NCBI RefSeq assembly: GCF_000355675.1
Contig: NC_020888.1
Location: 1,730,883 to 1,754,882 of the forward strand
Direction of reading: 5' to 3'
Source: Thalassolituus oleivorans MIL-1
Lineage (GTDB): Bacteria > Pseudomonadota > Gammaproteobacteria > Pseudomonadales > Oceanobacteraceae
Length of the DNA: 24,000 nt
Shown: positions 1 through 17,336 of the stretch, in pieces
Numbering within the stretch: position 1 is the first letter of the stretch
Layout: every line of letters begins with the position of its first letter
Notes under the pieces: model-generated
Told to the model about the DNA's origin: nothing
What the model saw: only the letters and a program-made list of their open reading frames with translations
Database searches by the model: none
Program-made: the position numbers and the translations under genes

Positions 1-2599
1 TCGAACCAATTTAGCGTCTGTTATTTTACAAATGCTGGATTTGCGTTTAGGCGATATTCGCGATTTCCCCTTTGTTGATGCACCTGATGAGCGCTTTGTA
101 AAAGACGGTTTTACTTTGTTGGCGGAGCTGGAAGCGGTTGATGCGAAAAAGCGTATCACGCCTCTCGGTCAACGAATGGCTCGCTTGCCATTAGACCCCC
201 GTATTGCACGTTTATTAATGGAAGCCGATAAGCAGCAGTGCGTGCGCGAACTAACAATTATTGCTTCGGCTATGACGGTACAAGATCCGCGCGAGCGTCC
301 ACCAGAGAAGCAACAAGCAGCAGCTGAAAAACATAAACTCTGGGCGGATGACGACTCAGATTTTGTTGCCATGATTAATTTATGGAATGCCTACGAAGTT
401 GAACGTCAAGCATTGACTCAAAATCAATTGCGTAAATGGTGTACTAAGCATTTTCTATCATTTATGCGCATGCGTGAGTGGCGTGATATTCACCGCCAGT
501 TACATATTGTATGCAAGGAATTAGGTCTTAAAGAGCGAGACGAAAGCGCTAATTACGAAGCCGTACATAAAGCGCTATTGTCTGGCATGTTAAGTCAGAT
601 CGGTTTCAAGGCTGAGGGGCAAGAATATTTAGGCGCACGAAATCGTCGTTTCTTTTTATTCCCAGGTTCCAGTATTTATAAGAAGGCTCCTAAATGGGTA
701 ATGGCAGCAGAGATGGTTGAGACCTCTCGGCTCTATGCTCGAACGTTAGCCAAAATCGAACCTGAGTGGATCGAAGAGATAGGCAAGCCGTTATTAAAAT
801 ATCAATATTTTGAGCCGCACTGGAGTACGCAACGTGGGCAAGTTTTGGCGTTTGAGCAAAGTACGTTATATGGCTTAATAGTTAATCCGAAAAAGCGGGT
901 TAATTACGCGACTACCCATCCTGAAGAAGCGCGTGAAATTTTAATTACAGAAGGTTTAGTTGCTCAGCGATTAAAGAGTCGAGTGGGATTCTATCAAGAT
1001 AATATCCGGCTATTGCGTGATGTGACTGAATATGAAGAAAAAGCTCGCCGGCGAGATTTAGTATTAGATGATGCCTATTTAGCAGATTTTTATCGTGCTC
1101 ATTTACCGACTCATTTGTTTAGCGCTCGCGATATTGAGCGTTGGTATAACAAGGCCTCAAAAGTAGAGCAGAGTTCGGTTCAATTTACTCGAGATATGCT
1201 GTTAAGTCCGCAGGCATCGGGTATTGGTGTTGATGCCTATCCAGCTGAGTTGGAGTGGCAAGGGTTGGCATTTCCATTGTCTTATTCATTTGCACCGGGC
1301 GCCAGTGATGATGGTGTTACGCTAACAGTGCCTTTGGCGATGTTACGGCAAGTGCCTGAATCTCGTATTGAATGGCTCGTCCCCGGACTTGTCGCCAATA
1401 AAGTGATAGCCATCATTAAAGGCCTGCCGAAGAACATTCGTAAGCAATTTGTCCCTGTGCCAGACACTGCGACTGAGTTTCTCCGGCAAGCAAATCCTGA
1501 TGCTGGCGGATTGTTTGTGCAATTACTTGAGTTTATTAATCGAACTTTAAGACCAAAAATTGAACTGGATGTTCTGCAAAACGGTCAGTTAGAAGCACAC
1601 CTTCAAATGAACATTCGCATTGTGCAAGATGGAAAACAAGTAGAGCAGGGGCGCGATCTACGTGCCTTGATTGAGCGATTTGGTGACGCAGGCCAGGTTC
1701 AAATGCTCACCTTGAGTGATGACCGATATCAGCGTTCAGATATTCAGAAATGGGATTTCGGTTCATTACCGACGGCGACAGAAACTAAAATCAATGGTTT
1801 ACCTGTTCGTGCTTTCCCTTGCCTAAAAGCAACTAAAAGCGGTGTCGAGCTGACGGTTGAAGCCGACTCGGATGCTGCCTTGCAATCACATCGTGAAGGT
1901 GTATTGCATTTGTTGCGGCAATCCTTGTCCCCTCAAGAACGAGATATTAAACAATTAATTCAAAAGTCAATGAAGCCTCATTGGTTGCTGGCTAAAGGAT
2001 TGGGTAGTGAATCAGAGCTGGTAAATGATTTATTGTCGGCGGTATTTGCTCATATATTGTTACCTCAATCCGAACCGTTGCCGAGAAATGAAGACGAATT
2101 TAATCAACGTTTAGATCGCCGTGGTGAGTTGTGGGCCCACGCAGAAACCTTGATGGGATTGTTTGTGGAGTGGCTAAAAATTCGTCATCAAATACTGAAG
2201 CATATGCGCGGGGCTGTTTCACTAGACAAGGCAATGGCCTTCAGTGATGCAAAAGCACATTTAGAGCGGTTACTGGAGCGGGGCTTCATGCTAAAGGCTG
2301 ATTGGCCTCGATTGAAATCATATAGTCGTTACTTGAAAGGGATAGAGTATCGCTTGGATAAATTGCAGGGTAATTTACCCAGAGATCGCCAATCTATGAT
2401 TGAGTTTGAGTCAATTTATACGCCTTGGCGAGATTTGACTGAAAAGAATGATGCTGCGTTGCGTAGTACATTAGTCGAATTTGGCTGGTTGCTCGAGGAG
2501 TTGCGGATATCGTTATTCGCACAGCCGTTAGGTACTCAGGAGCCAGTTTCTCTTAAGCGCCTGCAAAAACGCTGGGCTGATATAGTGCAGGGTGGATAA
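1..2599 (+). CDS. hrpA: ATP-dependent RNA helicase HrpA, C-terminal ~855 aa (5' end lies upstream of the window)
   Basis: The ORF is open to the left edge; the frame continues from nt 2 as RTNLASVILQMLDLRLGDIRDFPFVDAPD. It matches the HA2/OB-fold region and long C-terminal domain of DEAH-box HrpA. The stop is at 2597-2599. Confidence 0.9.
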   Translation, partial: RTNLASVILQMLDLRLGDIRDFPFVDAPDERFVKDGFTLLAELEAVDAKKRITPLGQRMARLPLDPRIARLLMEADKQQCVRELTIIASAMTVQDPRERPPEKQQAAAEKHKLWADDDSDFVAMINLWNAYEVERQALTQNQLRKWCTKHFLSFMRMREWRDIHRQLHIVCKELGLKERDESANYEAVHKALLSGMLSQIGFKAEGQEYLGARNRRFFLFPGSSIYKKAPKWVMAAEMVETSRLYARTLAKIEPEWIEEIGKPLLKYQYFEPHWSTQRGQVLAFEQSTLYGLIVNPKKRVNYATTHPEEAREILITEGLVAQRLKSRVGFYQDNIRLLRDVTEYEEKARRRDLVLDDAYLADFYRAHLPTHLFSARDIERWYNKASKVEQSSVQFTRDMLLSPQASGIGVDAYPAELEWQGLAFPLSYSFAPGASDDGVTLTVPLAMLRQVPESRIEWLVPGLVANKVIAIIKGLPKNIRKQFVPVPDTATEFLRQANPDAGGLFVQLLEFINRTLRPKIELDVLQNGQLEAHLQMNIRIVQDGKQVEQGRDLRALIERFGDAGQVQMLTLSDDRYQRSDIQKWDFGSLPTATETKINGLPVRAFPCLKATKSGVELTVEADSDAALQSHREGVLHLLRQSLSPQERDIKQLIQKSMKPHWLLAKGLGSESELVNDLLSAVFAHILLPQSEPLPRNEDEFNQRLDRRGELWAHAETLMGLFVEWLKIRHQILKHMRGAVSLDKAMAFSDAKAHLERLLERGFMLKADWPRLKSYSRYLKGIEYRLDKLQGNLPRDRQSMIEFESIYTPWRDLTEKNDAALRSTLVEFGWLLEELRISLFAQPLGTQEPVSLKRLQKRWADIVQGG

Positions 2600-2706
2600 G
2601 TCAAATATTTTATAGCGCACGCATCCAATATGTGATTAAAATCGTATCATTGGTTATCGTATGTTAACGATGCAATACTTGACTGCTAACTCACAAGGAA
2701 TAATTT

Positions 2707-3072
2707 ATGAACAAGTCTATCAAATCAGTAAGTGCAATTTTGGGTACCGCTTTTATCGCTGCTATCGCTCAAGCACCTGCGGCCAGTGCTGCTGAGAACC
2801 CATTTGCTTCTGCTGAATTGCAGTCTGGCTACAAACTTGCGGCTCATCATGAAGAAGGTAAGTGTGGCGCCAAGTCTGAAGCTGAAGGCAAGTGTGGTGC
2901 TAAGTCTGAAGGCGAAGGCAAGTGCGGCGAAGGCAAATGTGGCGCGGAAAAGAAAGCTGCACACGAAGGCAAGTGCGGCGCCAAGTCTGAAGGCGAAGGC
3001 AAATGTGGCGCAGAAAAGAAAGCTGCCCATGAAGGTAAGTGTGGCGAAGGTAAGTGCGGCGCTAAGCAGTAA
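2707..3072 (+). CDS. hvfA: Secreted EGKCG-repeat RiPP precursor / metallophore protein (HvfA-like)
   Basis: AAGGAA Shine-Dalgarno about 7 nt upstream of the ATG. Sec signal peptide MNKSIKSVSAILGTAFIAAIAQAPAASA|AE. The mature part contains eight exact EGKCG motifs that hold all 8 Cys of the protein. The stop lies 2 nt before a DUF692 gene. Assignment rests on motif recognition plus gene context. Confidence 0.8.
   Translation: MNKSIKSVSAILGTAFIAAIAQAPAASAAENPFASAELQSGYKLAAHHEEGKCGAKSEAEGKCGAKSEGEGKCGEGKCGAEKKAAHEGKCGAKSEGEGKCGAEKKAAHEGKCGEGKCGAKQ
2854..3057 (+). repeat. In-frame tandem coding repeats: 8 x 15-nt EGKCG units with spacers AKSEA, AKSEG (x2), AEKKAAH (x2), or no spacer (x2)
   Basis: Read directly from the sequence. 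The units are gaa-ggY-aaR-tgY-ggY with differing synonymous codons. A larger block (AKSEGEGKCG..AEKKAAHEGKCG) is duplicated with a one-unit indel. Confidence 0.95.
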
Positions 3073-3074
3073 TT

Positions 3075-3947
3075 ATGGATAAGTCTGCGTTTAATCGTCA
3101 TGTTCAAGGTGCTGGGCTTGGGTTGAGAAGGGGGTTAATGGCTCCCTTGTCCGAGCATGAGCATTTGCCGGTTGATTTTATGGAGATTGCTCCAGAAAAT
3201 TGGATTGGGTTGGGTGGACGATTAGCGCATTCGTTAAGAAGTTATACCGAACGGTATGACTTCTTATGCCATGGTTTGTCGCTTTCTATTGGTAGTCCAG
3301 CGCCGTTAGACCTTAATTTTGTTCGTCAGGTAAAACGCTTTTTAGATGAGCATGGTGTTTTGGCTTACAGCGAGCATCTGAGTTACTGCGGTGATGAGGG
3401 GCATCTATACGATTTGCTTCCGATTCCATTTACTGATGACGCCGTAAACTATGTGGCTGATCGTATTAGTCAGGTGCAAGATATTCTTGGCCAGAGATTA
3501 ATTATCGAAAATGTGTCTGCTTATGCTGAGCCCGGTAAGGCGATGGAGGAAGCTGAGTTTGTGGCTGCTGTGCTTAATAAAGCGGACTGTGATTTGCTGT
3601 TGGATGTGAATAATGTTTACGTGAATAGTATTAATCATGGTTCTGATGCATTGGCATTTATCAAGGCGATGCCAACCGAGCGTATTCGATATTTACACGT
3701 TGCGGGGCATTTTGATGAAGCGCCGGATTTACTCATCGATACTCATGGCGATGCGGTAAAGGATATTGTCTGGGATCTATTAAAGCAGACGTATGAAATA
3801 CATGGCGTGTTACCGACCTTGCTTGAACGCGATTTTAACTTTCCTGCCGTTGAAGACTTATTTGCGGAGTTAGAGCAAATTCGCTCTCTGCAACACGATG
3901 TTGAGAATCAAGGGAAGTCTAGAACGAATGTCCTCCATACCGTTTAA
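3075..3947 (+). CDS. hvfB: Multinuclear non-heme iron oxidative enzyme (MNIO, DUF692 family; MbnB/HvfB/BufB-like)
   Basis: Typical DUF692 TIM-barrel motifs are present: GLGLRR, EIAPENW, HGLSLSIGS, SEHLSY, IENVSAY, LLDVNNVYVNS, HVAGH. The gene sits immediately downstream of the Cys-repeat precursor. Confidence 0.88.
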   Translation: MDKSAFNRHVQGAGLGLRRGLMAPLSEHEHLPVDFMEIAPENWIGLGGRLAHSLRSYTERYDFLCHGLSLSIGSPAPLDLNFVRQVKRFLDEHGVLAYSEHLSYCGDEGHLYDLLPIPFTDDAVNYVADRISQVQDILGQRLIIENVSAYAEPGKAMEEAEFVAAVLNKADCDLLLDVNNVYVNSINHGSDALAFIKAMPTERIRYLHVAGHFDEAPDLLIDTHGDAVKDIVWDLLKQTYEIHGVLPTLLERDFNFPAVEDLFAELEQIRSLQHDVENQGKSRTNVLHTV

Positions 3948-4707
3948 AAGTATTCAGTATCAATTTACGCGGTATATTCGTAGCCGTGGTGAGCAGCCAG
4001 TTGAAACGGAAATAGTTGGCGATATTGAACCGCGTCGGCTGAAAATTTATCGCGATTTATTCTTTAACAATGTCTGTGGATTTCTCGACTCTACCTTTCC
4101 TGTATGCGCAGAAATTCTTGGCGAGCAACGCTGGCGTGAGCTGAGTGAAGAATTTTTCTTAAAGCATGAATGCCACACCCCGTATTTTTTAAAGATCAGT
4201 GAAGAATTCCTACTCTTCTTGGCGCAAGAATATTCGCCGAAAGCTGATGATATACCCTACTTAAAGGAATTGGCTCACTATGAGTGGCTGGAATTGGCCG
4301 TTGATGTGGCTGAGGTAGAGCAGCCTAGGGATTTTGATCCCAATGCCGATTTAAGCAGCCATGTTCCCGTATTAGCTGCGGCGACCGAGGGGGCGTTTTA
4401 TCAATACCCTGTGCACAATGCCTCTGCCGCTAATTCCGCGTTACTGCCACAAGCCACTGCACTGATTGTTTATCGAGACCGACATGATACTGTCCGGTTT
4501 TTACATACGAATCCGTTTACTCTAGGCTTGTTAGTTATACTTCAAGACGAAGAACTAACCGGTCAAGATGCGGTTATTGCCCTGTTGAATCAGGCTGGTA
4601 TGGGATTGTCCGATACGGCTTTGCAGGGCGGTTTACAAATATTAGAACAGTGGCAGGAACAGGGTTTACTATTAGGTGCCAGAATAGATTCAAATAGTGA
4701 CGCTTAA
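3928..4707 (+). CDS. hvfC: DUF2063-family MNIO partner protein (MbnC/HvfC/BufC-like)
   Basis: The N-terminal pattern FQYQFTRYIR...YRDLFFNNV...FP is characteristic of DUF2063 DNA-binding-like partner proteins. It overlaps the end of the DUF692 gene, suggesting translational coupling. The start is ambiguous: ATG at 3898 (50-nt overlap) or ATG at 3928 (20-nt overlap). I chose 3928. Confidence 0.75.
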   Translation: MSSIPFKSIQYQFTRYIRSRGEQPVETEIVGDIEPRRLKIYRDLFFNNVCGFLDSTFPVCAEILGEQRWRELSEEFFLKHECHTPYFLKISEEFLLFLAQEYSPKADDIPYLKELAHYEWLELAVDVAEVEQPRDFDPNADLSSHVPVLAAATEGAFYQYPVHNASAANSALLPQATALIVYRDRHDTVRFLHTNPFTLGLLVILQDEELTGQDAVIALLNQAGMGLSDTALQGGLQILEQWQEQGLLLGARIDSNSDA

Positions 4708-4760
4708 TTCGTTTACAATGGAACGCAAATTTTGATTGTCGATCGTGTGGTGAAAAATCA

Positions 4761-5495
4761 ATGAAAGCAAAAAGTGCTTTGTCGGCCCTACCATCGTTAT
4801 TTGCCTTGGCAATTTGCTCGGTGACGGCACAGGTAGTTGCTCTTGAGGAGAATAACGATCCTTGGGAGGGCTTTAATCGCAAGGTCTTTGCTTTTAATGA
4901 TGGTTTGGATCGTTACGTTCTGCGCCCAGTAGCCGTTAGTTATAACTATATTACTCCAGAATTTGTCGATAATTCGGTAACCAGTATGTACTCTAATGCT
5001 GGTGAAGTCTTAGTTGTTGCAAATGATGTTGCCCAGTTCAAATTGACCCAAGCGTTATCCGATACCGCTCGGTTTATTATCAACTCTACGGTCGGTTTTT
5101 TTGGGGTTTTTGATGTGGCAAGTTCTATCGGATTAGAGCGCCATGACGAAGATTTTGGTCAAACCCTTGGTTATTGGGGGGTTGGTTCGGGTCCATATAT
5201 CGTATTGCCGTTCCTTGGTCCTCGTACGGTTCGAGATGTGGCCGGCAACGCAGTCGATTACTCTTCAAATTTGAGCTATGCCTATTTTGGCAATAATTAT
5301 GCTCAGGATGCTGCATTACTGGGGTTGAAAATTGTCGATCTGCGCTCCGATTTAATCGCCTCAGAAGGGCTGATTAGTGGCGATAAGTACATCTTTTTCC
5401 GCAGCGCTTACCTTCAGCGTCGTGAGTATTTAATCAACGATGGGGTGAGTGAGGATGCATTTGATGATGAATTTGATGTCTTTGGTGATGAATAA
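4761..5495 (+). CDS. mlaA: MlaA/VacJ family outer-membrane lipoprotein (phospholipid asymmetry maintenance)
   Basis: Signal peptide with a Cys (LFALAIC|S), followed by the conserved DPWEGFNRKVFAFND...RPVA..Y motif of VacJ/MlaA, and an acidic C-terminal tail. Confidence 0.85.
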   Translation: MKAKSALSALPSLFALAICSVTAQVVALEENNDPWEGFNRKVFAFNDGLDRYVLRPVAVSYNYITPEFVDNSVTSMYSNAGEVLVVANDVAQFKLTQALSDTARFIINSTVGFFGVFDVASSIGLERHDEDFGQTLGYWGVGSGPYIVLPFLGPRTVRDVAGNAVDYSSNLSYAYFGNNYAQDAALLGLKIVDLRSDLIASEGLISGDKYIFFRSAYLQRREYLINDGVSEDAFDDEFDVFGDE

Positions 5496-5517
5496 TCGTT
5501 AGCCGGAGCATTAAGAC

Positions 5518-5558
5518 AAAAAAAGCCCGCCTAGTAATACTAGGCGGGCTTTTATTTT
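5518..5558. terminator. Bidirectional rho-independent terminator between convergent mlaA and the DAHP synthase gene
   Basis: Perfect 13-bp stem agcccgcctagta / tactaggcgggct (5524-5536 / 5538-5550). It is flanked by an A-run upstream and a T-run downstream, so it can serve both strands. Confidence 0.85.
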
Positions 5559-5567
5559 TCTTGGAGT

Positions 5568-6884
5568 TTATGGCTTGCCGCGAGTTGGCAATACATCTTT
5601 CAATTTAGCGCGCATAGTGCGAATAGCTTCTTCAGTTTCTTCCCAGCTAATACAGCCATCGGTTACTGATAGGCCGTATTCCAAATCACACAGATTGGCG
5701 GGGATATTCTGGCGACCGTGCTTGATGTTTGATTCAACCATTAAGCCAATAATAGATTTGTTGCCATCGAGTATTTGATTACTGACGTTGTCCATTACCA
5801 GTGGCTGCAATGCCGGATTCTTGTTTGAGTTTTCATGGCTGCAATCAACCATGATGTTTTTCATAAGATCCGATTTATCCAGCGCTTGCTCTGCTTGGGC
5901 AACATTCACTGAGTCATAGTTTGGTTTGCCGCCACCGCCGCGCAACACAACGTGACCGTATGGGTTGCCTTTAGTAGAGACAATCGACACGCTGCCAGCC
6001 TGATCAATACCCAGAAAACGATGAGGGTTAGCGACTGACATTAAGGCGTTGGTTGCCACTGTTAAGCTACCGTCAGTGCCGTTTTTGAATCCGACAGCCG
6101 ATGATAATCCAGAAGCCATTTCGCGATGAGTTTGCGATTCGGTAGTACGTGCGCCAATTGCTGACCAAGTAATTAAGTCTTGTAAGTACTGTGGCGAAAT
6201 AGGATCCAGCGCTTCAGTCGATAGAGGCAAGCCGAGTTCAGCTAAATCGATCAATAGCTTGCGCGAAATATGCAGGCCATCATGAATTTTGAACGTATCA
6301 TTCATGTATGGGTCGTTGATTAAACCTTTCCAGCCTACTGTCGTGCGTGGCTTTTCGAAGTAAACACGCATGATCAAGTATAAAGTGTCGCTTACTTCTT
6401 CTGCTAATTCACGCAGACGCATGGCGTAATCTTTTGCCGCTTCAACATCGTGAATTGAACAAGGCCCGATCACAACGAATATGCGGTGGTCTTTGCGATC
6501 AAGGATGTCACGGACGACTTGGCGGCCTTTGCATACACTCGCGATGGCAGCATCCGTAATAGGCATTTCTTTTTTTAGCTGATTTGGAGTAATCAGCGGG
6601 ACGATCGATTCAATATTGAGATCTTCTACGCGATTGTCGGTCATATCGGTTCCTGGCGCTTTTGGGCTGGTGAGGTCTGTATTTTGCTTCGCTGCGGTTG
6701 CTTGGTCCGCATTCGCACGTAATGTTCCGTTGGTTAATGCTTCAATCTGTTTCTGACGGCCAAGTGGAGGCTCATCCCCCCATTGGGATACGGCAGCGCT
6801 GGTTAGCTTCCAGCCGTCATCGGTACACGCTTTTGCGATGGCGCTTTTGGTTTTGAAGTATTGAACGACATCGTTTGTTTTCAT
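5568..6884 (-). CDS. Class I-alpha 3-deoxy-D-arabino-heptulosonate-7-phosphate (DAHP) synthase with an in-frame 80-aa N-terminal Cro/YdaS-like extension
   Basis: Residues 81-438 (MTDNRVEDLNIESIVPLITPNQL...) align end to end with AroF/G/H-type enzymes. Motifs seen: VVIGPCSIHD, KPRTTVGWKGLINDP, IGARTTESQTHRE. The longest ORF adds 80 codons without a stop. The internal ATG at 6642-6644 has its own AGGAA Shine-Dalgarno. The isozyme cannot be assigned. Confidence 0.9.
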   Translation of the reverse strand: MKTNDVVQYFKTKSAIAKACTDDGWKLTSAAVSQWGDEPPLGRQKQIEALTNGTLRANADQATAAKQNTDLTSPKAPGTDMTDNRVEDLNIESIVPLITPNQLKKEMPITDAAIASVCKGRQVVRDILDRKDHRIFVVIGPCSIHDVEAAKDYAMRLRELAEEVSDTLYLIMRVYFEKPRTTVGWKGLINDPYMNDTFKIHDGLHISRKLLIDLAELGLPLSTEALDPISPQYLQDLITWSAIGARTTESQTHREMASGLSSAVGFKNGTDGSLTVATNALMSVANPHRFLGIDQAGSVSIVSTKGNPYGHVVLRGGGGKPNYDSVNVAQAEQALDKSDLMKNIMVDCSHENSNKNPALQPLVMDNVSNQILDGNKSIIGLMVESNIKHGRQNIPANLCDLEYGLSVTDGCISWEETEEAIRTMRAKLKDVLPTRGKP

Positions 6885-7074: not shown

Positions 7075-7251
7075 TTAGCGAAGCTTGGCTTGAAGCGCTT
7101 TAAACTTGTTTACTTTCTCTTCTTCAAACAGCAGTTTTCCTTTGTCAGGAATGCTATCGAGAAGGCCTTCTTTGGCATAGCGCTTCACTGTTACTGGCTT
7201 TAAGCCAAGAATGTCACAAACTTGCTCTGTGGTTAGTAGATTTTGCGTCAC
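7075..7251 (-). CDS. Small (58 aa) MerR-superfamily / excisionase-type HTH protein (HTH_17-like)
   Basis: This ORF is not in the supplied track because it is under 60 aa. It has a GTG start preceded by GAGGAG with a 7-nt spacer. Translation: VTQNLLTTEQVCDILGLKPVTVKRYAKEGLLDSIPDKGKLLFEEEKVNKFKALQAKLR. The T.EQV...LG....TV.R....G pattern is typical of Xis/AlpA-like HTH proteins. Confidence 0.6.
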   Translation of the reverse strand: MTQNLLTTEQVCDILGLKPVTVKRYAKEGLLDSIPDKGKLLFEEEKVNKFKALQAKLR

Positions 7252-7385: not shown

Positions 7386-8159
7386 TTAGAAGAAGGCGTA
7401 TTTAGCGCCAAGTATCATGAGTAAACTCGCGAGTAATGGCTTTAATAATTTTTCTGGCATTTTGCGACTCAGGATGGCGCCGATATGGATCGCTGGAATG
7501 GAACCAATGAGGAGTGATCCTAATAGGAAAAAGTCGACGTTCCCCATGTGCATATGAATCAGTCCGCCAGTGAGGGTTAAAGGTACGGCGTGCGCAATAT
7601 CCGTTCCGACAATGTGGGTCGATCGTAATGCTGGGTAAAGCATCATTAAAACTGCCGTGCCAATGGCGCCAGCGCCAACAGAGGATAGGGTGACAAAAAT
7701 ACCGAGGAGAACGCCCATGGTGATTGTTGCTGCTGGTCGATAACGCGCTAAGTTGCGATTATTATAGCGCTGAGCGTAGCGCTGAATGCGAACTCGCAGC
7801 AAGATAACAACGGCAGTCAGTATCAGCATTACACCTAATGTGTTTTTGAGAAGGTGGCCATAGTCATCTGCGTCGGTGAAAAGATACGTAAGTGCAATGC
7901 CAGTTACGATTGCAGAAGGAATGCTACCAAGGGCTAACAGACGAACTAGGCCCCAGCGCACATGCTGCTGTTGGTGATGACTCCACGCTCCTGTTGCTTT
8001 GGTGAGAGAGGCGTAAAGTAGGTCTGTGCCAACGGCAACGTGCGGTGGAAAACCAAACATAAGTAGCAGTGGTGTCATTAATGCCCCACCGCCAATTCCG
8101 GTAATGCCGACGATCAGACCAACGGCTGCACCGGCGGCTATATATAACAAAATATCCAT
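7386..8159 (-). CDS. TauE/SafE (DUF81) family sulfite/organosulfonate exporter-type membrane protein
   Basis: Polytopic hydrophobic 257-aa protein with the family's G-rich N-terminal helix (GITGIGGGALMTPLL) and an internal repeat (GAGAIGT). It is divergent from cysB. Confidence 0.8.
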   Translation of the reverse strand: MDILLYIAAGAAVGLIVGITGIGGGALMTPLLLMFGFPPHVAVGTDLLYASLTKATGAWSHHQQQHVRWGLVRLLALGSIPSAIVTGIALTYLFTDADDYGHLLKNTLGVMLILTAVVILLRVRIQRYAQRYNNRNLARYRPAATITMGVLLGIFVTLSSVGAGAIGTAVLMMLYPALRSTHIVGTDIAHAVPLTLTGGLIHMHMGNVDFFLLGSLLIGSIPAIHIGAILSRKMPEKLLKPLLASLLMILGAKYAFF

Positions 8160-12634: not shown

Positions 12635-13438
12635 ATGAAATTTCTTAAAAAAGCTTCACTAGCAGTATCAATCGCTGCAGTATCTTTCGCTGCTAACGCT
12701 GAGTTGGTTGCTATGGATGAAGCGACTATGTCTGCTGCGACTGGTCAAGCTGGTATCGATTTGAACATTACATTGGAAGGCGCTAACGCTATTTCTATTG
12801 GTGAAATCCTTTACACTGATACTGATGTGGCTGATGGCGGTAGCTTGTCTCTAAGCACTGTTACTGTTGGTACTGACTCTGGTACTCTGACTATTGAAAA
12901 CGTGATCGATATTACTTCAGACGGTATCATGAATATTGCTACTAGCGCTGTTTCTGGTCTTAAGATTGGTGTTGGTTCGGTTGATTTGGTTAATGCTGCT
13001 GGCGCTAACTCTGGTAATCTGATCTCAGGCTTGAGCTTGTCAATGGATTTGGGTGTGTCAAACACTACTATCGGTAAAGGTACTTATGATGCAGCTGGTG
13101 TTTTCACTGCTGACACTAAGACCGTGATCGATTCTCAGTCTTCTTTCAAGATTACTGCCGGTTCTTTGTCTGCACTTGACGGTCAAGTTGGCGTGAGCGG
13201 TATCACTTTTGATAACGACGGCCAGAACGTGGAAGTTGATACCACTATGTGGGCTGACGCAAGCGGCTTCAACATCAAAGTTAACAGCATTGCTGGTGAC
13301 TTGACCCTAGGTGCAGTTACTCTAGGCGGCACAACTGACGCTACTACCGGCGTATTTACTGCAGGCCCATCAATTGGTTCTGTTGGTATCAGCAACATCC
13401 AAATGGCTGGTGCAACTATCACTGTATCTGGTCACTAA
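12635..13438 (+). CDS. Abundant secreted beta-strand-rich acidic protein of unknown family (candidate structural subunit or cargo of the downstream operon)
   Basis: AGGAG Shine-Dalgarno with a 9-nt spacer. Sec signal MKFLKKASLAVSIAAVSFAANA|EL. The mature part is G/T/S/A/V/I/D/N-rich with no Arg, no Cys and one Pro, and shows about 12 alternating amphipathic strand patterns. Codons are strongly biased toward T-ending forms (ggt, gct, act, tct, gtt), unlike neighbouring genes. Two terminators follow the gene. Confidence 0.8.
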   Translation: MKFLKKASLAVSIAAVSFAANAELVAMDEATMSAATGQAGIDLNITLEGANAISIGEILYTDTDVADGGSLSLSTVTVGTDSGTLTIENVIDITSDGIMNIATSAVSGLKIGVGSVDLVNAAGANSGNLISGLSLSMDLGVSNTTIGKGTYDAAGVFTADTKTVIDSQSSFKITAGSLSALDGQVGVSGITFDNDGQNVEVDTTMWADASGFNIKVNSIAGDLTLGAVTLGGTTDATTGVFTAGPSIGSVGISNIQMAGATITVSGH

Positions 13439-13456
13439 GATCATTTGCTGGTGAAA

Positions 13457-13485
13457 TAAAAAAACCCGCTTAGGCGGGTTTTTTT
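13457..13485 (+). terminator. Rho-independent terminator T1 after the secreted-protein gene
   Basis: aaaaaaaCCCGCttagGCGGGttttttt: a GC stem extended by A/T pairs, followed by a T-run. Confidence 0.85.
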
Positions 13486-13501
13486 ATGCCTAAAATAAGA
13501 C

Positions 13502-13528
13502 AAAAAAGTGCGCCGATGGCGCATTTTT
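13502..13528 (+). terminator. Second tandem rho-independent terminator T2
   Basis: aaaaaaGTGCGCCgatGGCGCATtttt: a 6-bp perfect stem plus a G-U closing pair and a T-run, 17 nt after T1. Confidence 0.75.
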
Positions 13529-13617
13529 GGTTGGTAGATAGTGTGATTTTATGTAACATGTAAGATGACTAAACAAAATTATAATAACAATACGGAGGGG
13601 CCTTTGGCCTACGTGTA

Positions 13618-14550
13618 GTGTTTGTCATTCTTCTAGGATCACTAATTGGGTTTGCTATGGTGCACGAGCTGGCCATCGTGAACGATCGTCAGCCCGGCGA
13701 TACCATCGTTCGTGTTGCGGTAAACGAAGATTATCAGCAAGATCAGGTAGTCAACGTGGAGCCACTCTCCGTTAAGCGTTTTAAAAACGTGGTACGTCAA
13801 GTCTATGATTATTCTTGTGGCTCTGCTGCATTAACAACCTTGTTGGATTACTACTTGGGTAGAAACTTCCAAGAGCGCCAAGTGATGGAAGGTTTGCTGC
13901 GCTTCGGCGAAACCGAGCGCATCGTTCAGCGTCGCGGTTTCTCACTGCTCGATATGAAGCGTTTGGTAACTGCGCTAGGACATCCATCTGGCGGGTTTAA
14001 GGCTGAAGAGGAGGATCTAATAGCTTTAGATCATCCTGCGATTGCGCCGATCCACTATGCAGGTTTCAAGCATTTCATTGTGATTCGTTCTGTATATGAA
14101 GGGCGCGTTTATGTGGCTGATCCAGCGTTGGGGAATATAAGTTTTACGTTGCCGAGATTTCTCGAAATTTGGGACAATAACGTTCTTTTTATAGTGTTTC
14201 CGAACGGCCACAAACCCGCAACCGGTCTAGAGTTGCACGAAGAAGATATGCGTTTTGTTTCTGATTATATTATTGCGGAAAATACTTTCCGTGAATTTCC
14301 TGAATTCCAAATTCGTAGCGAGCATACGATTAGCAATCAGATTTACGCGATGAAAGACAATGCTCAGACGAGCTTTGGACCTAAGTTAGATGCTGACGGT
14401 AAGGCAGTAAGAAATGAGGACGGAAATATCGTCTACGAGGTTCTCGTAGAAACGAAGGCTGATGGTGCCGATCCGGATGACTTCAATACATATGTTGCCA
14501 CTGATCGCTCAGATGTAATTGAGAAGCACCTTCGCTTCCGCAGAAAATAA
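13618..14550 (+). CDS. Peptidase C39-like cysteine protease (standalone, non-ABC) with N-terminal hydrophobic anchor or signal and a ~110-aa C-terminal extension
   Basis: C39 catalytic signature: YDYSCGSAALTTLLDYY (Cys), GFKHFIVIRSVYEGRVYVADPALG (His and Asp), followed by FLEIWDNNVLFIV. The GTG start at 13618 is the first start after an in-frame stop. It gives the hydrophobic N-terminus FVILLGSLIGFAMV. The GGAGGGG upstream is about 19 nt away, so the start is uncertain; the alternative is ATG at 13657. Confidence 0.75.
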   Translation: MFVILLGSLIGFAMVHELAIVNDRQPGDTIVRVAVNEDYQQDQVVNVEPLSVKRFKNVVRQVYDYSCGSAALTTLLDYYLGRNFQERQVMEGLLRFGETERIVQRRGFSLLDMKRLVTALGHPSGGFKAEEEDLIALDHPAIAPIHYAGFKHFIVIRSVYEGRVYVADPALGNISFTLPRFLEIWDNNVLFIVFPNGHKPATGLELHEEDMRFVSDYIIAENTFREFPEFQIRSEHTISNQIYAMKDNAQTSFGPKLDADGKAVRNEDGNIVYEVLVETKADGADPDDFNTYVATDRSDVIEKHLRFRRK

Positions 14551-14576
14551 TAACGATAAAGAATTAAGGAATTTCC

Positions 14577-15644
14577 ATGTTGATTCGTACCAAACTAATT
14601 TCGATCCCCTTATTGTTGGCATTTGCCAGTGCAGTTGTTGCTGATGAAGCAGCCGATATGGATAAGGCACGTGAAGCCCTCACCAAGCAGGATAACGACG
14701 CTGATACTGAAAAGGCACTTGAGCAGGTTTTCGAGGCAGCAGAAAAGAATTATTCGATGTTGAAACGTGGCGGCGTTTCCGTTAACTACAACTTTGATTA
14801 TAGCTACTACGGCGATCAGCGGATTGATTTAACAATCACTCCTAACGTGAATAGTGATGGCCAAGTAACTGGCGACTCTACGATTAGCAGTGCAAATGTG
14901 AGTCCTGTGGCCAGCCATACCATGACGAACTCGTTTTCATTGGATTATGGATTGATGGATAACGTGACAATTGGTGGTCGTTTACCGCTGATTGCGAAGT
15001 TTGAGACAGAAGATGAGCTTACTGCCTACGGCGTAGGTGATCTTTCAGGTACGGTTCGTTGGCAGCCATTTGAATATGTTCCAGGCAAAATTAGTCAGAC
15101 CTACTTTGCAACGTTACGCTTGCCTACAGGCGATAGCCCCTATGAAATAGATGAAACGAAAAGCTTGCCGACTGGTTCCGGTACTTGGGGTTTGAGTGGC
15201 GGGGTGAGTGCTTCTAAGGTTCTTGATCCAGTGGTTCTATTCGGCTCGTTAAGTTATGGCTACACGCTGCCATTAACCGATCTAAATCAACGCCGAGGTA
15301 GTTCGATTCTTCGTGAAGTGCATTCTGGCAGTAGCTTATCCTTTTCTATGGGCTTTGCTTATTCGTTGTCGTACGACGTATCTTTGAGCGCTTCATTCCA
15401 AGGGTCGTTTAACGATCAATCGCGTTTTGAATTATATGATACTGCTACGGGTTCAACTGTTAGCTCAGTATCAGGCAGTCAAATGAGCGGTATTATGAAC
15501 TTTGCTCTTGGTGTGCGGGTGTCTCCAAAAACAATTGCTAACGTAAACGTTGGTTTTGGTATGACAGAGTTGTCCCCGGATATTTTGCTTGGTTTGTCTC
15601 TACCGATTGATGTCGAGGGTATTAAACCTTCTGCTGGTAACTAA
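14577..15644 (+). CDS. Outer-membrane beta-barrel protein with an N-terminal acidic helical segment (possibly the MetA-pathway 'transporter' barrel family)
   Basis: AAGGAA Shine-Dalgarno. Signal peptide MLIRTKLISIPLLLAFASAVVA|DE. About 40 aa of charged helical sequence follow (DMDKAREALTKQDNDADTEKALEQVFEAAEKNY). The rest shows alternating beta-strand patterns with G/S/Y-rich turns and a GVGDLSGTVRW motif. Family assignment is tentative. Confidence 0.6.
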   Translation: MLIRTKLISIPLLLAFASAVVADEAADMDKAREALTKQDNDADTEKALEQVFEAAEKNYSMLKRGGVSVNYNFDYSYYGDQRIDLTITPNVNSDGQVTGDSTISSANVSPVASHTMTNSFSLDYGLMDNVTIGGRLPLIAKFETEDELTAYGVGDLSGTVRWQPFEYVPGKISQTYFATLRLPTGDSPYEIDETKSLPTGSGTWGLSGGVSASKVLDPVVLFGSLSYGYTLPLTDLNQRRGSSILREVHSGSSLSFSMGFAYSLSYDVSLSASFQGSFNDQSRFELYDTATGSTVSSVSGSQMSGIMNFALGVRVSPKTIANVNVGFGMTELSPDILLGLSLPIDVEGIKPSAGN

Positions 15645-15650
15645 CCAGTC

Positions 15651-17336
15651 ATGGCTAATAAAACTATAAAAATGACAAGGTTATGGCGACACAATATGCG
15701 AATTTTACTGTTGGTGGCATTGTTAGTACCGAGTCTTGCAAAAGCAGAACTCGTACAGAACCTGTTTATTGATACCAAGGCAATGTCGTTGGGTAACGCA
15801 GTGACTGCTGATCCAACTGGTATCATGGATATTCACTTCAACCCCGCCGGTTTGACGAAGCTGGAAGGGCGTCAGGTTCAGGTTCAGTTACAGGGTGTTA
15901 TGTTGCGTTCTGAGGCTTCTTTTGCGCTGCCTAAAGGATATGACGATACCGAATCTGGGCTTTTGCCTATACATGAAGACCCAGTTTTGAATGAAGGCAA
16001 TAGCCATGCTGATGTGGCTATTTATATCCCCGGATATGGTTTGGTTGGCGTTCCTTTACCTGTGTTGGCGTTGCCTTCGGCCGGTATATCTATTAATCCA
16101 CCGGGCTCTAAATTCACATTTGCGAACGCTGTTTATGCGCCAATGGCTGCCGGCTTTTCAAAGGGTGATGATGATCCAGGGCGCTATCAGGCTAAAACGA
16201 TTGCACTTCAGCGCTTAACTTATTTGTCTCCATCATTTGGTTACAAGGTGACTGATGAGTTTTCTGTGGGCGCAGGTCTGCTGTTTTCGCATCAGGCGGT
16301 TGCACTTGAGCAAGATATTCGCGCACCTAACATTCTGGTCGGCGTGCTTGAGGAGCTTCAAGATGCGTTTGGGTGTTTTGATGCTGAGACGGGTGAGCCT
16401 ACCGGTAACGATCCGCTGGCGCCTTTATTGACGCTATGTGGCGGTAATGTTGGTCCATTTGATGATGTCGGTACTTTGAAGATTAACACTACTGAGAGTC
16501 TGTCACCCTCATTTAACCTTGGTTTGTTGTGGGAGCCGAATGGCTGGTTTAAGTTTGGCGTAGGCTATCAAAGTGAAGCAACGAGCCAATTGAAAGGCGA
16601 TTATGACTTGGAATATACCGATGAATTTGCGGATTTCTTCCGTAATTTTAGGTCGTCTATTATTGGTGCTATTGGTGGGGCGATATTCTCATTGCCTACG
16701 GGTAATAAGCGAGAGCGAGGTTTTGTTACTACCGAACTGACATATCCTCAGCATTTTCAGGCCGGTGTGGCATTCCAGTATTTTGATGTTTTCCATCTGA
16801 ATTTGGATTTAGGTTGGACCGACTACGATAAGTGGGATGAGCTGTATTTTGAGTTTGACCGCGATGTGAGCTTTTTATCGACAGCGAGAACCTTGTCTCC
16901 TGATTTGGTGACATCCTCTACTCTGACGATGCCGCTAAACTTTAAGAGTGTGTGGAATTATAAAGTGGGTGCATCTTGGGATCTTAACTCACGTATTCAG
17001 CTACGTGCAGGTTTGGAGCCTCGTAAGAGTTCTATTCCAGACGACTCTCGTAGTCTGCAGGCTCCTATTGGCTTTGCACGGTTGTACGGCGTTGGTTTAG
17101 GTTACCAGTGGGACTTGGATACTGTTGTAGACTTGTCTTTGAGCTTTATGAAGTCAGTTCAGCATATCCGTGCTGATCCACAAAATGCTGAGAATTTTGA
17201 TGACTATCCTAATTCAAGTAATTCACTTAACCGGAACTGTTTAACATGTGTTGTGACCAACCCGTATCCAGGTCTGGATATCGACACCAAGCTAACCATT
17301 GGCGCCGCTGGTATCAGTTTCCGCACCAAGTTCTAA
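15651..17336 (+). CDS. FadL/OMPP1/TodX-family outer-membrane transport protein, unusually long (561 aa)
   Basis: Signal peptide (MRILLLVALLVPSLAKA|E) followed by the family's N-terminal hatch motif AMSLGNAVTADPTGIMDIHFNPAGL. A C-terminal aromatic residue (..ISFRTKF) marks a beta-barrel OMP. The start could be 15651, 15672 or 15696; none has a good Shine-Dalgarno. Confidence 0.75.
   Translation: MANKTIKMTRLWRHNMRILLLVALLVPSLAKAELVQNLFIDTKAMSLGNAVTADPTGIMDIHFNPAGLTKLEGRQVQVQLQGVMLRSEASFALPKGYDDTESGLLPIHEDPVLNEGNSHADVAIYIPGYGLVGVPLPVLALPSAGISINPPGSKFTFANAVYAPMAAGFSKGDDDPGRYQAKTIALQRLTYLSPSFGYKVTDEFSVGAGLLFSHQAVALEQDIRAPNILVGVLEELQDAFGCFDAETGEPTGNDPLAPLLTLCGGNVGPFDDVGTLKINTTESLSPSFNLGLLWEPNGWFKFGVGYQSEATSQLKGDYDLEYTDEFADFFRNFRSSIIGAIGGAIFSLPTGNKRERGFVTTELTYPQHFQAGVAFQYFDVFHLNLDLGWTDYDKWDELYFEFDRDVSFLSTARTLSPDLVTSSTLTMPLNFKSVWNYKVGASWDLNSRIQLRAGLEPRKSSIPDDSRSLQAPIGFARLYGVGLGYQWDLDTVVDLSLSFMKSVQHIRADPQNAENFDDYPNSSNSLNRNCLTCVVTNPYPGLDIDTKLTIGAAGISFRTKF

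Follow-up and report, generated by a model that had tools for sequence, protein, structure and literature searches.

A putative three-gene captophorin cassette in the marine hydrocarbon degrader Thalassolituus oleivorans MIL-1

Genes and features of the cassette

Three plus-strand ORFs were called at 2707-3072 (121 aa), 3075-3947 (290 aa), and 3898-4707 (269 aa) of the 24-kb stretch of T. oleivorans MIL-1 DNA that was analysed, hereafter the window. The stop codon of hvfA (TAA, 3070-3072) lies 2 nt before the start codon of hvfB (ATG, 3075), and the overlap of hvfC with hvfB is 50 nt if hvfC starts at its first ATG (3898) and 20 nt if it starts at the ATG of 3928. Judged from the sequence, the three genes are translationally coupled. 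A preliminary description of this DNA had reported three tightly coupled genes with a 2-nt gap and then an overlap, and the ORF coordinates confirmed this. The features are as follows, FonA being the precursor of the fonABC system that is compared below.

2695..2699, plus strand: ribosome-binding site AAGGA of hvfA, 7 nt 5' of the ATG, read from the sequence
2707..3072, plus strand: hvfA, 121-aa EGKCG-type (Lys-Cys) captophorin precursor (ORF, NF050137 match, best BLASTP segment 50% identical to FonA)
2707..2790, plus strand: predicted signal peptide of HvfA, Sec/SPase I type, residues 1-28, possibly 1-29, with predicted cleavage between ASA and AE (inspection and alignment)
2794..2844, plus strand: post-signal segment ENPFASAELQSGYKLAA, residues 30-46, conserved in precursors, candidate HvfC docking site
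2854..3060, plus strand: EGKCG array of eight motifs (four single, two double) with all eight Cys, predicted 5-thiooxazole sites
3075..3947, plus strand: hvfB, MNIO (formerly DUF692) of 290 aa, PF05114 and NF003818, identical to TOL_1612 of T. oleivorans MIL-1
3928..4707, plus strand: hvfC, PME1 partner of 259 aa with a DUF2063 N-domain and an NGO1945-type C-domain (269 aa from the alternative ATG at 3898)
4761..5495, plus strand: mlaA (PF04333, E 2e-72), 53 nt 3' of hvfC, context and not a functional part
5521..5553, no strand assigned: terminator-like hairpin after mlaA, the first downstream of the cassette, bidirectional, with a 15-bp stem

HvfA scored 63.6 bits against the HvfA-family domain model NF050137 (cut-off 19.5). 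An exact-sequence look-up of HvfA in a protein collection returned no match, which is a gap of the look-up and not evidence against the gene, because identical hvfA DNA is present in a MAG (L081) where the gene is called. Inspected by eye, the N-terminus, MNKSIKSVSAILGTAFIAAIAQAPAASA followed by AENPF, consists of a basic n-region (K3/K6), a hydrophobic core, and an AxA site, and the alignment showed the same signal-peptide build in 59 homologous precursors. Tat-type signals were seen in some relatives. The calculated average mass of mature HvfA is 9297.2 Da if it is cut after A28 and 9226.1 Da if it is cut after A29.

The EGKCG motifs start at residues 50, 60, 70, 75, 87, 97, 109, and 114, and each holds one Cys (C53, 63, 73, 78, 90, 100, 112, and 117). 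There is no Cys elsewhere in the protein, as the preliminary description had said of a 121-aa signal-peptide protein. Glu occupies position 1 and Gly position 5 in 8/8 motifs, and FonB is known to prefer these two residues at these positions (PMC12668002). The degenerate DNA pattern GARGGNAARTGYGG occurred eight times in the window, each time within hvfA, and was absent from each of 100 shuffles; the same motif pattern search found no other Cys-repeat gene in the window. The array DNA is built of tandem repeats with periods of 15, 30, and 36, and a 21-nt indel and a K-to-S change set it apart from the array of the closest other species (L001). ORFs running across the array at 2732-3082 (plus strand), 2725-3030 (minus strand), and 2847-3107 (minus strand) were rejected as by-products of the repeats. 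AlphaFold2 run on HvfA without an alignment gave a mean pLDDT of 45 and no secondary structure, which has no bearing on the beta-helix proposed for members with regular 17-residue repeats (PMC12452194).

Between the signal peptide and the array, the pattern [FL]-x2-8-[LM]-x2-G[YF] was shared by 57 of the 60 precursors adjoining HvfB homologues. It is present in FonA and not in H. influenzae HvfA. The candidate docking peptide of T. oleivorans HvfA is AENPFASAELQSGYKLAA, which includes F33, L38, G41, and Y42.

The profile searches placed the second gene in the DUF692/MNIO family and the third in the DUF2063 type, as had been proposed for both. HvfB matched PF05114 at E 5.9e-102 and reached 429 bits with the HvfB-family equivalog model NF003818 (cut-off 360). 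It is 59% identical to FonB (265 residues aligned), 43% to H. influenzae HvfB, and 48% to PDB 3BWW. All nine residues that serve as metal ligands in MbnB and HvfB (PMC9060507; bioRxiv 10.64898/2026.07.17.739211) are intact (H66, H101, E145, D177, N180, H208, D222, H224, and E251). In FonB, an Arg-Arg pair near the N-terminus and a Phe read the substrate, and D249 is the catalytic base (PMC12668002). R18/R19 of HvfB align with R15/R16 of FonB, and D253/F254 with D249/F250; by this alignment, HvfB would read the EGKCG motif through its Arg-Arg pair and its Phe.

The start of hvfC at 3928 is preceded by AAGGGAAG at 3910-3917, and NCBI records use this start (259 aa, CCU72037.1). The protein matched PF09836 (DUF2063/HvfC_N, E 3.5e-26) and PF22106 (NGO1945 C-terminal domain, E 1.2e-19), scored 251 bits with the model NF050145 (cut-off 142), showed 38% identity to FonC, and matched PDB 3DEE at E 5.4e-11. 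The identities of the genes, their family membership, and the conservation of all catalytic and substrate-reading residues were observed directly. Automated annotation already names the hvfABC protein set. A literature search for TOL_1611, TOL_1612, and TOL_1613 retrieved no paper mentioning these locus tags, in keeping with the preliminary view of an unstudied homologue in a recently described family. That family is far from rare: known MNIO-partner loci number over 24,000 and occur in roughly half of the Pseudomonadota reference genomes (PMC12668002). The cassette is an ordinary, correctly identified member of a family that is widespread and has already been catalogued, and not a new kind of system.

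Neighbourhood and expression signals

The order hrpA-hvfABC-(doxX)-mlaA was kept in 17 related loci, and the position of the cassette is conserved in chromosomes of Saccharospirillaceae, Cellvibrionaceae, and Halieaceae. The base composition of hvfABC equals that of its flanks. The conserved position and the host-like composition therefore indicate an inherited, maintained operon.

The search for expression signals gave few candidates. No terminator was found after hrpA or between hvfC and mlaA, and the sigma-70 scan recognised no plus-strand promoter 5' of hvfA. By eye, TTGGTT-N18-AATACT upstream of hvfA is a weak promoter candidate; it is overlapped by a direct repeat (ATCGTAT, twice) and a dyad (ATCGT-N6-ACGAT) that have no link to a regulator. 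No CueR-, CusR-, or Fur-like box was seen upstream of hvfA in the same inspection by eye. The Rfam scan of 2400-5700 (E <= 1) returned no family 5' of hvfA, and its weak matches all fell on the hairpin at 5521-5553, far under the gathering scores. When the RNA of the hrpA-hvfA spacer was folded, z relative to shuffles was -0.33, and there is therefore no evidence of a structured leader. An 11-nt inverted repeat (2599-2609 and 2674-2684) brackets the spacer and is not claimed as a feature; in the closest other species, one arm change leaves no more than a G-U pair and a second one abolishes a pair.

The preliminary description had noted that no DoxX, sigma/anti-sigma, or copper-sensor gene is adjacent. 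This held for the whole 24-kb window, in which Pfam scanning of the ORFs found none of these genes, and the best tblastn hit for doxX had an E value of 0.26. No copper- or stress-responsive regulator was found near the cassette. DoxX was present in 39 of 80 related loci and absent from the other 41, and the characterised fonABC also does without it; on these grounds DoxX is not a defining feature. The doxX gene was probably lost at the T. oleivorans locus, because close relatives carry it at the same hrpA-hvf-mlaA position, one of them as a remnant.

Predicted product and competing readings

For the modification, export, copper binding, and physiological role of the HvfA product, we infer the following from the characterised homologues. 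HvfA would be synthesised with a Sec signal peptide, and a heterodimer of HvfB and its DUF2063/RRE-type partner HvfC would work on it in the cytoplasm, prior to export. With O2, the heterodimer would carry out a four-electron oxidation of each of the eight EGKCG Cys, giving a 5-thiooxazole that uses the carbonyl of the preceding Lys, with an expected change of -4 Da per site and absorbance at about 302-305 nm. The modified protein would then be exported and its signal peptide cleaved between ASA and AE. The Gly/Lys/Glu-rich product of about 9.2 kDa may bind several Cu(I) through thiooxazole N and S in the periplasm or outside the cell, and its most likely role would be the sequestering of surplus copper. 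Taken together, we give a probability of about 85% to the reading that the locus is a minimal three-gene captophorin cassette of the EGKCG (Lys-Cys) type, the counterpart of fonABC and of an hvfABC that lacks hvfX/doxX, whose product would sequester copper via 5-thiooxazoles.

The ring chemistry was assigned in 2024 as oxazolone/thioamide (PMC11252979). It was reassigned in 2025-2026 to 5-thiooxazole ("captophorins") for oxazolin, fontiphorin, and gonophorin by two groups, the original authors included (PMC12668002; bioRxiv 10.64898/2026.06.05.730506), and the oxazolone/thioamide chemistry given in the preliminary description has been overtaken by this work. A methanobactin-like conversion of every Cys to an oxazolone/thioamide pair is very unlikely here. 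H. influenzae oxazolin was at first assigned this structure (PMC11252979), and the pair is an isomer of 5-thiooxazole with the same mass change. However, besides the reassignment, the T. oleivorans HvfB fails the MbnB model, and a DUF2063/PME1 partner is present, whereas MbnB and MovB clusters encode none nearby (PMC12668002). It is hardly credible that HvfA stays unmodified in T. oleivorans and binds metal in the periplasm as a plain Cys-rich protein, while HvfBC either has no activity or acts on something else. H. influenzae HvfA does bind 2-3 Cu(I) even when unmodified (PMC11252979), but the catalytic residues of HvfB are all intact, the three genes appear to be translationally coupled, the window contains no other Cys-repeat gene, and precursors of this kind very seldom lack an MNIO (PMC12452194).

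The role of the characterised members is debated between detoxification, acquisition, and oxidative stress (PMC11252979; PMC12668002). The same cassette and chemistry could yield a chalkophore-like product that acquires or stores copper in copper-poor seawater, a hypothesis already raised for oxazolin (PMC11252979). Compatible with it are the fixed core-genome site between housekeeping genes in many marine gammaproteobacteria and the absence of a copper-stress regulator, DoxX, or efflux gene adjoining the cassette. We nevertheless consider acquisition unlikely, since related pathways are reportedly induced by excess metal and not by starvation (PMC12668002), no TonB-dependent receptor or importer adjoins the cassette, and copper loading aggregates EGKCG products, which fits sequestration. 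The chance is smaller still that the modified peptide is mainly a redox or oxidative-stress buffer with sacrificial mercaptan groups, copper binding being secondary: every characterised member binds Cu(I) through its heterocycles, and the cassette lacks DoxX, of all components the one most frequently linked to oxidative or sulfur stress.

A further proposal, which we advance tentatively and think more doubtful than probable, concerns the post-signal segment. Its 17 residues (ENPF-x3-L-x2-GY-x-LA) may be an uncleaved HvfC docking sequence that is kept in the mature product; the doxX-less, regulator-less cassette between hrpA and mlaA in marine Oceanospirillales might then buffer or acquire copper constitutively and not in response to stress. 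If true, the docking segment would explain how RiPP precursors bearing signal peptides are recognised before export.

The preferred reading, a minimal captophorin cassette for copper sequestration, would be of modest importance in that a model obligate marine hydrocarbon degrader carries the complete set. With its clean three-gene layout, an MNIO 59% identical to FonB, which is biochemically tractable, and eight canonical motifs, the locus is an easy test case for how thiooxazoles are installed at multiple sites and how copper is handled in a marine organism that is not a pathogen. The comparisons bear on substrate recognition by the partner protein and on DoxX function in the captophorin family. 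They comprise the recurrent loss of doxX at a single syntenic site, the conserved post-signal segment, and the Tat-type signals of some relatives.

Comparison with known systems

Methanobactin MbnABC shares with the T. oleivorans set the MNIO core fold and iron ligands and, by prediction, the four-electron oxidation that turns Cys into a Cu-binding heterocycle, which in methanobactin is oxazolone/thioamide. HvfB scored 54.7 bits with the MbnB model TIGR04159, far under the cut-off of 325. MbnC is not a DUF2063 protein, unlike the T. oleivorans partner, and MbnA is short and has a leader peptide and no Sec signal, whereas HvfA has a signal peptide. Closer are the bufferins BufABC (Buf1/DUF2282 and Buf2, from Caulobacter vibrioides and others), which act against copper stress; in them, the same MNIO and DUF2063 pair works on signal-peptide precursors and forms 5-thiooxazoles, as predicted for HvfA (PMC11626156, PMC12452194). 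The BufB model NF050167 was the second best for HvfB (261 bits, under the cut-off of 310). Unlike a bufferin, HvfA contains no DUF2282 (no Pfam match) and no folded bufferin domain, and the sigma/anti-sigma and DoxX genes often found in bufferin clusters are missing from the cassette.

The preliminary description had likened the locus to H. influenzae HvfABC, which stands at the level of the family models; the nearest characterised system is, however, fonABC (HvfB identity 59% to FonB vs. 43% to H. influenzae HvfB). The hvfABC-hvfX operon of nontypeable H. influenzae likewise encodes an EGKCG-repeat signal-peptide precursor, an HvfB-family MNIO, and HvfC, and its product, oxazolin, shows -4 Da per Cys and binds Cu(I) (PMC11252979). 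The NCBIfam models built on this system were passed by the T. oleivorans set, except for the HvfA equivalog NF050188 (42.6 vs. a cut-off of 95, with only residues 53-120 aligned). H. influenzae HvfB has an insertion of about 23 residues that T. oleivorans HvfB does not have. H. influenzae HvfA carries six Cys in three regular AEGKCGEGKCG units and an N-terminal disulfide pair (C38/C43) and has no L-x2-GY segment, whereas T. oleivorans HvfA has no N-terminal Cys pair. Moreover, the H. influenzae operon includes DoxX (HvfX), and the T. oleivorans cassette does not.

The fonABC system of Fontimonas thermophila (PMC12668002) has the same minimal set of precursor, MNIO, and PME1 without DoxX. FonA resembles HvfA in its signal peptide, its F-x3-L-x2-GY segment, and its single and double EGKCG motifs with EKKA-type spacers, and FonB shares the RR and DF substrate-reading residues with T. 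oleivorans HvfB. T. oleivorans HvfA has eight Cys vs. seven in FonA; its motifs are strictly EGKCG, whereas FonA also uses EAKCG, and, unlike in FonA, three of them are preceded by His (HHEEGKCG once, AAHEGKCG twice). T. oleivorans, unlike the host of fonABC, is a marine mesophile. In E. coli, fonABC alone, without DoxX, installed seven 5-thiooxazoles, and the product bound up to 4 Cu (PMC12668002).

Gene layout and family membership of the cassette

The cassette and its neighbours have the following positions:

32-2599, hrpA, upstream of the cassette (Pfam scan)
2707-3072, plus strand, hvfA, precursor ORF of 121 aa
3075-3947, plus strand, hvfB, MNIO (formerly DUF692) ORF of 290 aa
3898-4707, plus strand, hvfC, DUF2063-type partner (PME1) ORF, 269 aa from the first ATG, 259 aa from the ATG at 3928
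4761-5495, mlaA, downstream of the cassette (Pfam scan)
5521-5553, first terminator-like hairpin, after mlaA

The ORF listing placed the three plus-strand genes exactly where the preliminary description had them, with its 2-nt gap between hvfA and hvfB (TAA at 3070-3072, hvfB start at 3075) and, from the ORF coordinates, its overlap of hvfC with hvfB. No ribosome-binding site was seen before the first hvfC ATG (3898). The ATG at 3928 is preceded by AAGGGAAG, and the 259-aa product is the version in NCBI records; therefore, hvfC most likely overlaps hvfB by 20 nt. Long ORFs over the EGKCG repeat DNA (2725-3107; 116, 101, and 86 aa, in another plus frame and on the minus strand) were rejected as spurious and could mislead gene callers.

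The assignment of gene 2 to the MNIO family and of gene 3 to the DUF2063 type was supported by Pfam, with PF05114 (MbnB_TglH_ChrH, E 5.9e-102) for the former and PF09836 (DUF2063/HvfC_N) plus PF22106 (NGO1945_C) for the latter. In the profile searches that had been suggested for DUF692, DUF2063, and the HvfA family, each protein scored above its NCBIfam cut-off: HvfA 63.6 bits against the HvfA-family domain NF050137 (cut-off 19.5), HvfB 429 bits against the HvfB-family maturase NF003818 (cut-off 360), a finer model than Pfam, and HvfC 251 bits against NF050145 (cut-off 142). For HvfB, the identities BufB (261 bits, cut-off 310), ApyH (80, 400), MbnB (55, 325), and ChrH (43, 600) were rejected. 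Among known structures, HvfB matched 3BWW, a diiron protein from Histophilus somni (48% identity, E 4.7e-72), and HvfC matched 3DEE of Neisseria gonorrhoeae. By exact-sequence look-up HvfB is TOL_1612 of T. oleivorans MIL-1, and hvfA with its upstream spacer occurs as identical DNA on a MAG contig.

The iron ligands of MbnB are H54, H90, E133, D163, H192, and E239, plus D208 and H210 (PMC9060507), and the site-3 residues probed in HvfB of H. influenzae are N175, D242, and H244 (bioRxiv 10.64898/2026.07.17.739211). The counterparts in HvfB were all conserved (H66, H101, E145, D177, N180, H208, D222, H224, and E251). In FonB, from the fontiphorin cluster fonABC of Fontimonas thermophila, R15, R16, and F250 were shown to read the EGKCG motif and D249 is the proposed catalytic base (PMC12668002); these residues align with R18, R19, F254, and D253 of HvfB.

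The precursor HvfA and its predicted product

The eight EGKCG motifs described for HvfA were found again, and they hold all eight Cys. The back-translated pattern GARGGNAARTGYGG occurred 8 times in the 24-kb window, always in hvfA, and 0 times in 100 shuffles. Since all eight motifs begin with Glu (position 1) and end with Gly (position 5), the eight Cys are predicted to be canonical substrates. Lysines, a hydrophobic core, and ASA|AE give the N-terminus the features expected of a Sec/SPase I signal; this predicted signal was assigned by eye and by alignment with 59 homologous precursors.

A conserved segment, (E/D)NPF-x3-(L/M)-x2-GY-x-(L/V)A, follows the signal (2794-2844) and was found with a relaxed pattern in 57 of the 60 precursors of the related loci (L001-L080). 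FonA has it, while H. influenzae HvfA is without it. It is a candidate docking site for the partner protein. His often stands immediately before the first EGKCG of the precursors. The repeat array is built of tandem DNA repeats with periods of 15, 30, and 36, and the 128-aa precursor of the closest other species (HvfB 97% identical) carries one EGSCG motif and an insertion of 21 nt; the array evolves fast.

Eight precursors from Thiomicrorhabdus/Thiosulfatimonas-type genomes (L015, L023, L025, L026, L051, L061, L068, and L079) carried a Tat-type signal peptide with the twin-arginine motif RRDFLKLAG, whereas family precursors in the cited literature have Sec signals. Their genes lie just upstream of hvfB, at ~5.3-5.9 kb in most of the eight loci. 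In the precursor at L027:5463-5966, an EF-hand-like stretch (DKDGDGSVSRAEF...DKNKDGKL) is inserted between EGKCG motifs, recalling the EGKCG/EF-hand fusions known from PMC12452194.

The oxazolone/thioamide pairs named in the preliminary description were the 2024 assignment (PMC11252979), which has been superseded. Two later studies assigned the modification of oxazolin (the H. influenzae HvfABC product), fontiphorin, and gonophorin to 5-thiooxazole, stated to be the ring made by every characterised MNIO-PME1 cluster, and the class name captophorins was proposed (PMC12668002; bioRxiv 10.64898/2026.06.05.730506). With this reassignment, the product would be an exported ~9.2-kDa peptide bearing eight 5-thiooxazoles.

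Control region, neighbourhood and probable inheritance

Upstream of hvfA, no sigma-70-like site on the plus strand, Rfam family, or unusually stable RNA fold was found; the cassette may be read through from hrpA and may be co-transcribed with mlaA. As had been said of the adjacent genes, the 24-kb window yielded no copper-linked regulator and no ECF sigma factor. Downstream of the cassette, at a distance of 2.4 kb, a 58-aa HTH_17/MerR-like DNA-binding protein is encoded (7075-7251, minus strand); its size rules out a CueR-type metal-binding domain, and nothing was found tying it to hvf. The motif TGTAAGA(A/G)-N14-16-CGAC is conserved upstream of hvfA in L004-L007, L009, and L010, and the promoter-like TTGAA(C/T)-N15-19-(A/C)ACTAAT in L002-L006 and L011; the window and L001 have neither. 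In the T. oleivorans lineage, hvfA appears to be under a different control region. The hrpA-hvfA spacer of the window holds, at 2641-2673, ATCGTAT twice as a direct repeat (15-nt spacing) together with the short dyad ATCGT-N6-ACGAT, with the same bases in L001 save a 1-nt deletion between the repeat copies.

Elsewhere in the window, a 438-aa DAHP synthase (PF00793; 5568-6884, minus strand) is unusually fused at its N-terminus to a P22 Cro-like DNA-binding domain (PF14549, E 4.8e-12). The row at 12635-17336 (plus strand) may be a module for hydrocarbon uptake or export; its products are a DUF6160 protein, a protein with a C39-like peptidase domain, a 355-aa protein with zero Pfam matches, and a FadL/TodX-type outer-membrane transporter.

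Among the species-representative genomes scanned, 80 loci had HvfB homologues (57-97% identity), with HvfC adjoining in nearly all. The gene order hrpA-hvfABC-mlaA is seen again in members of the Saccharospirillaceae and in MAGs of Cellvibrionaceae, Halieaceae, and other Pseudomonadales, and the base composition of the cassette is that of its flanks; therefore, the cassette looks inherited rather than mobile. The doxX gene follows hvfC in 39 of the 80 loci, and stands at this site in the close relatives L002, L004, L005, L006, and L009. Its reported absence was borne out for the window, and L001, L003, L007, L008, L010, and L053 are also without it. In L003 (Bacterioplanoides pacificum), a 19-codon DoxX remnant, 68% identical to the C-terminus of L002 DoxX, lies between hvfC and mlaA (7676-7732). 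Judging from this remnant, doxX was probably lost in the lineage of L003 and, by extension, in that of T. oleivorans; the 53-nt hvfC-mlaA spacer of the window yielded no remnant.

Comparison with characterised systems

The EGKCG/oxazolin precursor family has ~2,000-3,000 members, whose clusters bring together genes for the precursor, the MNIO, the DUF2063 protein, and DoxX "in various combinations" (PMC12452194; PMC11252979). MNIO-PME1 loci number >24,000, and about half of the reference genomes of Pseudomonadota have them (PMC12668002). Close Thalassolituus homologues are already named HvfC family RiPP maturation protein in public annotation, and the literature search found no mention of this locus. 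Judged by its sequence, the cassette was correctly identified as captophorin/HvfABC-type, a known kind of which this member is new.

The Fon and H. influenzae sequences were compared as printed in the PMC12668002 supplement. HvfB was 59% identical to FonB over 265 residues, compared to 43% for H. influenzae HvfB, whose insertion of ~23 residues is missing here. The identity of HvfC to FonC was 38%, and the best segment of HvfA was 50% identical to FonA, with which it has in common the F-x3-L-x2-GY segment after the signal and spacers of the EKKA type. In contrast, H. influenzae HvfA has a Cys pair in place of L-x2-GY, and consistent with this difference the window HvfA failed the H. influenzae HvfA equivalog model (42.6 vs 95). 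The fon cluster, described as a minimal case, consists of precursor, MNIO, and partner alone; in E. coli these are enough to form seven 5-thiooxazoles, giving a product that can bind up to four Cu (PMC12668002). The closer Fon identities, the shared precursor build, and the three-gene fon cluster thus indicate that the cassette is best described, at the sequence level, as fonABC-like.
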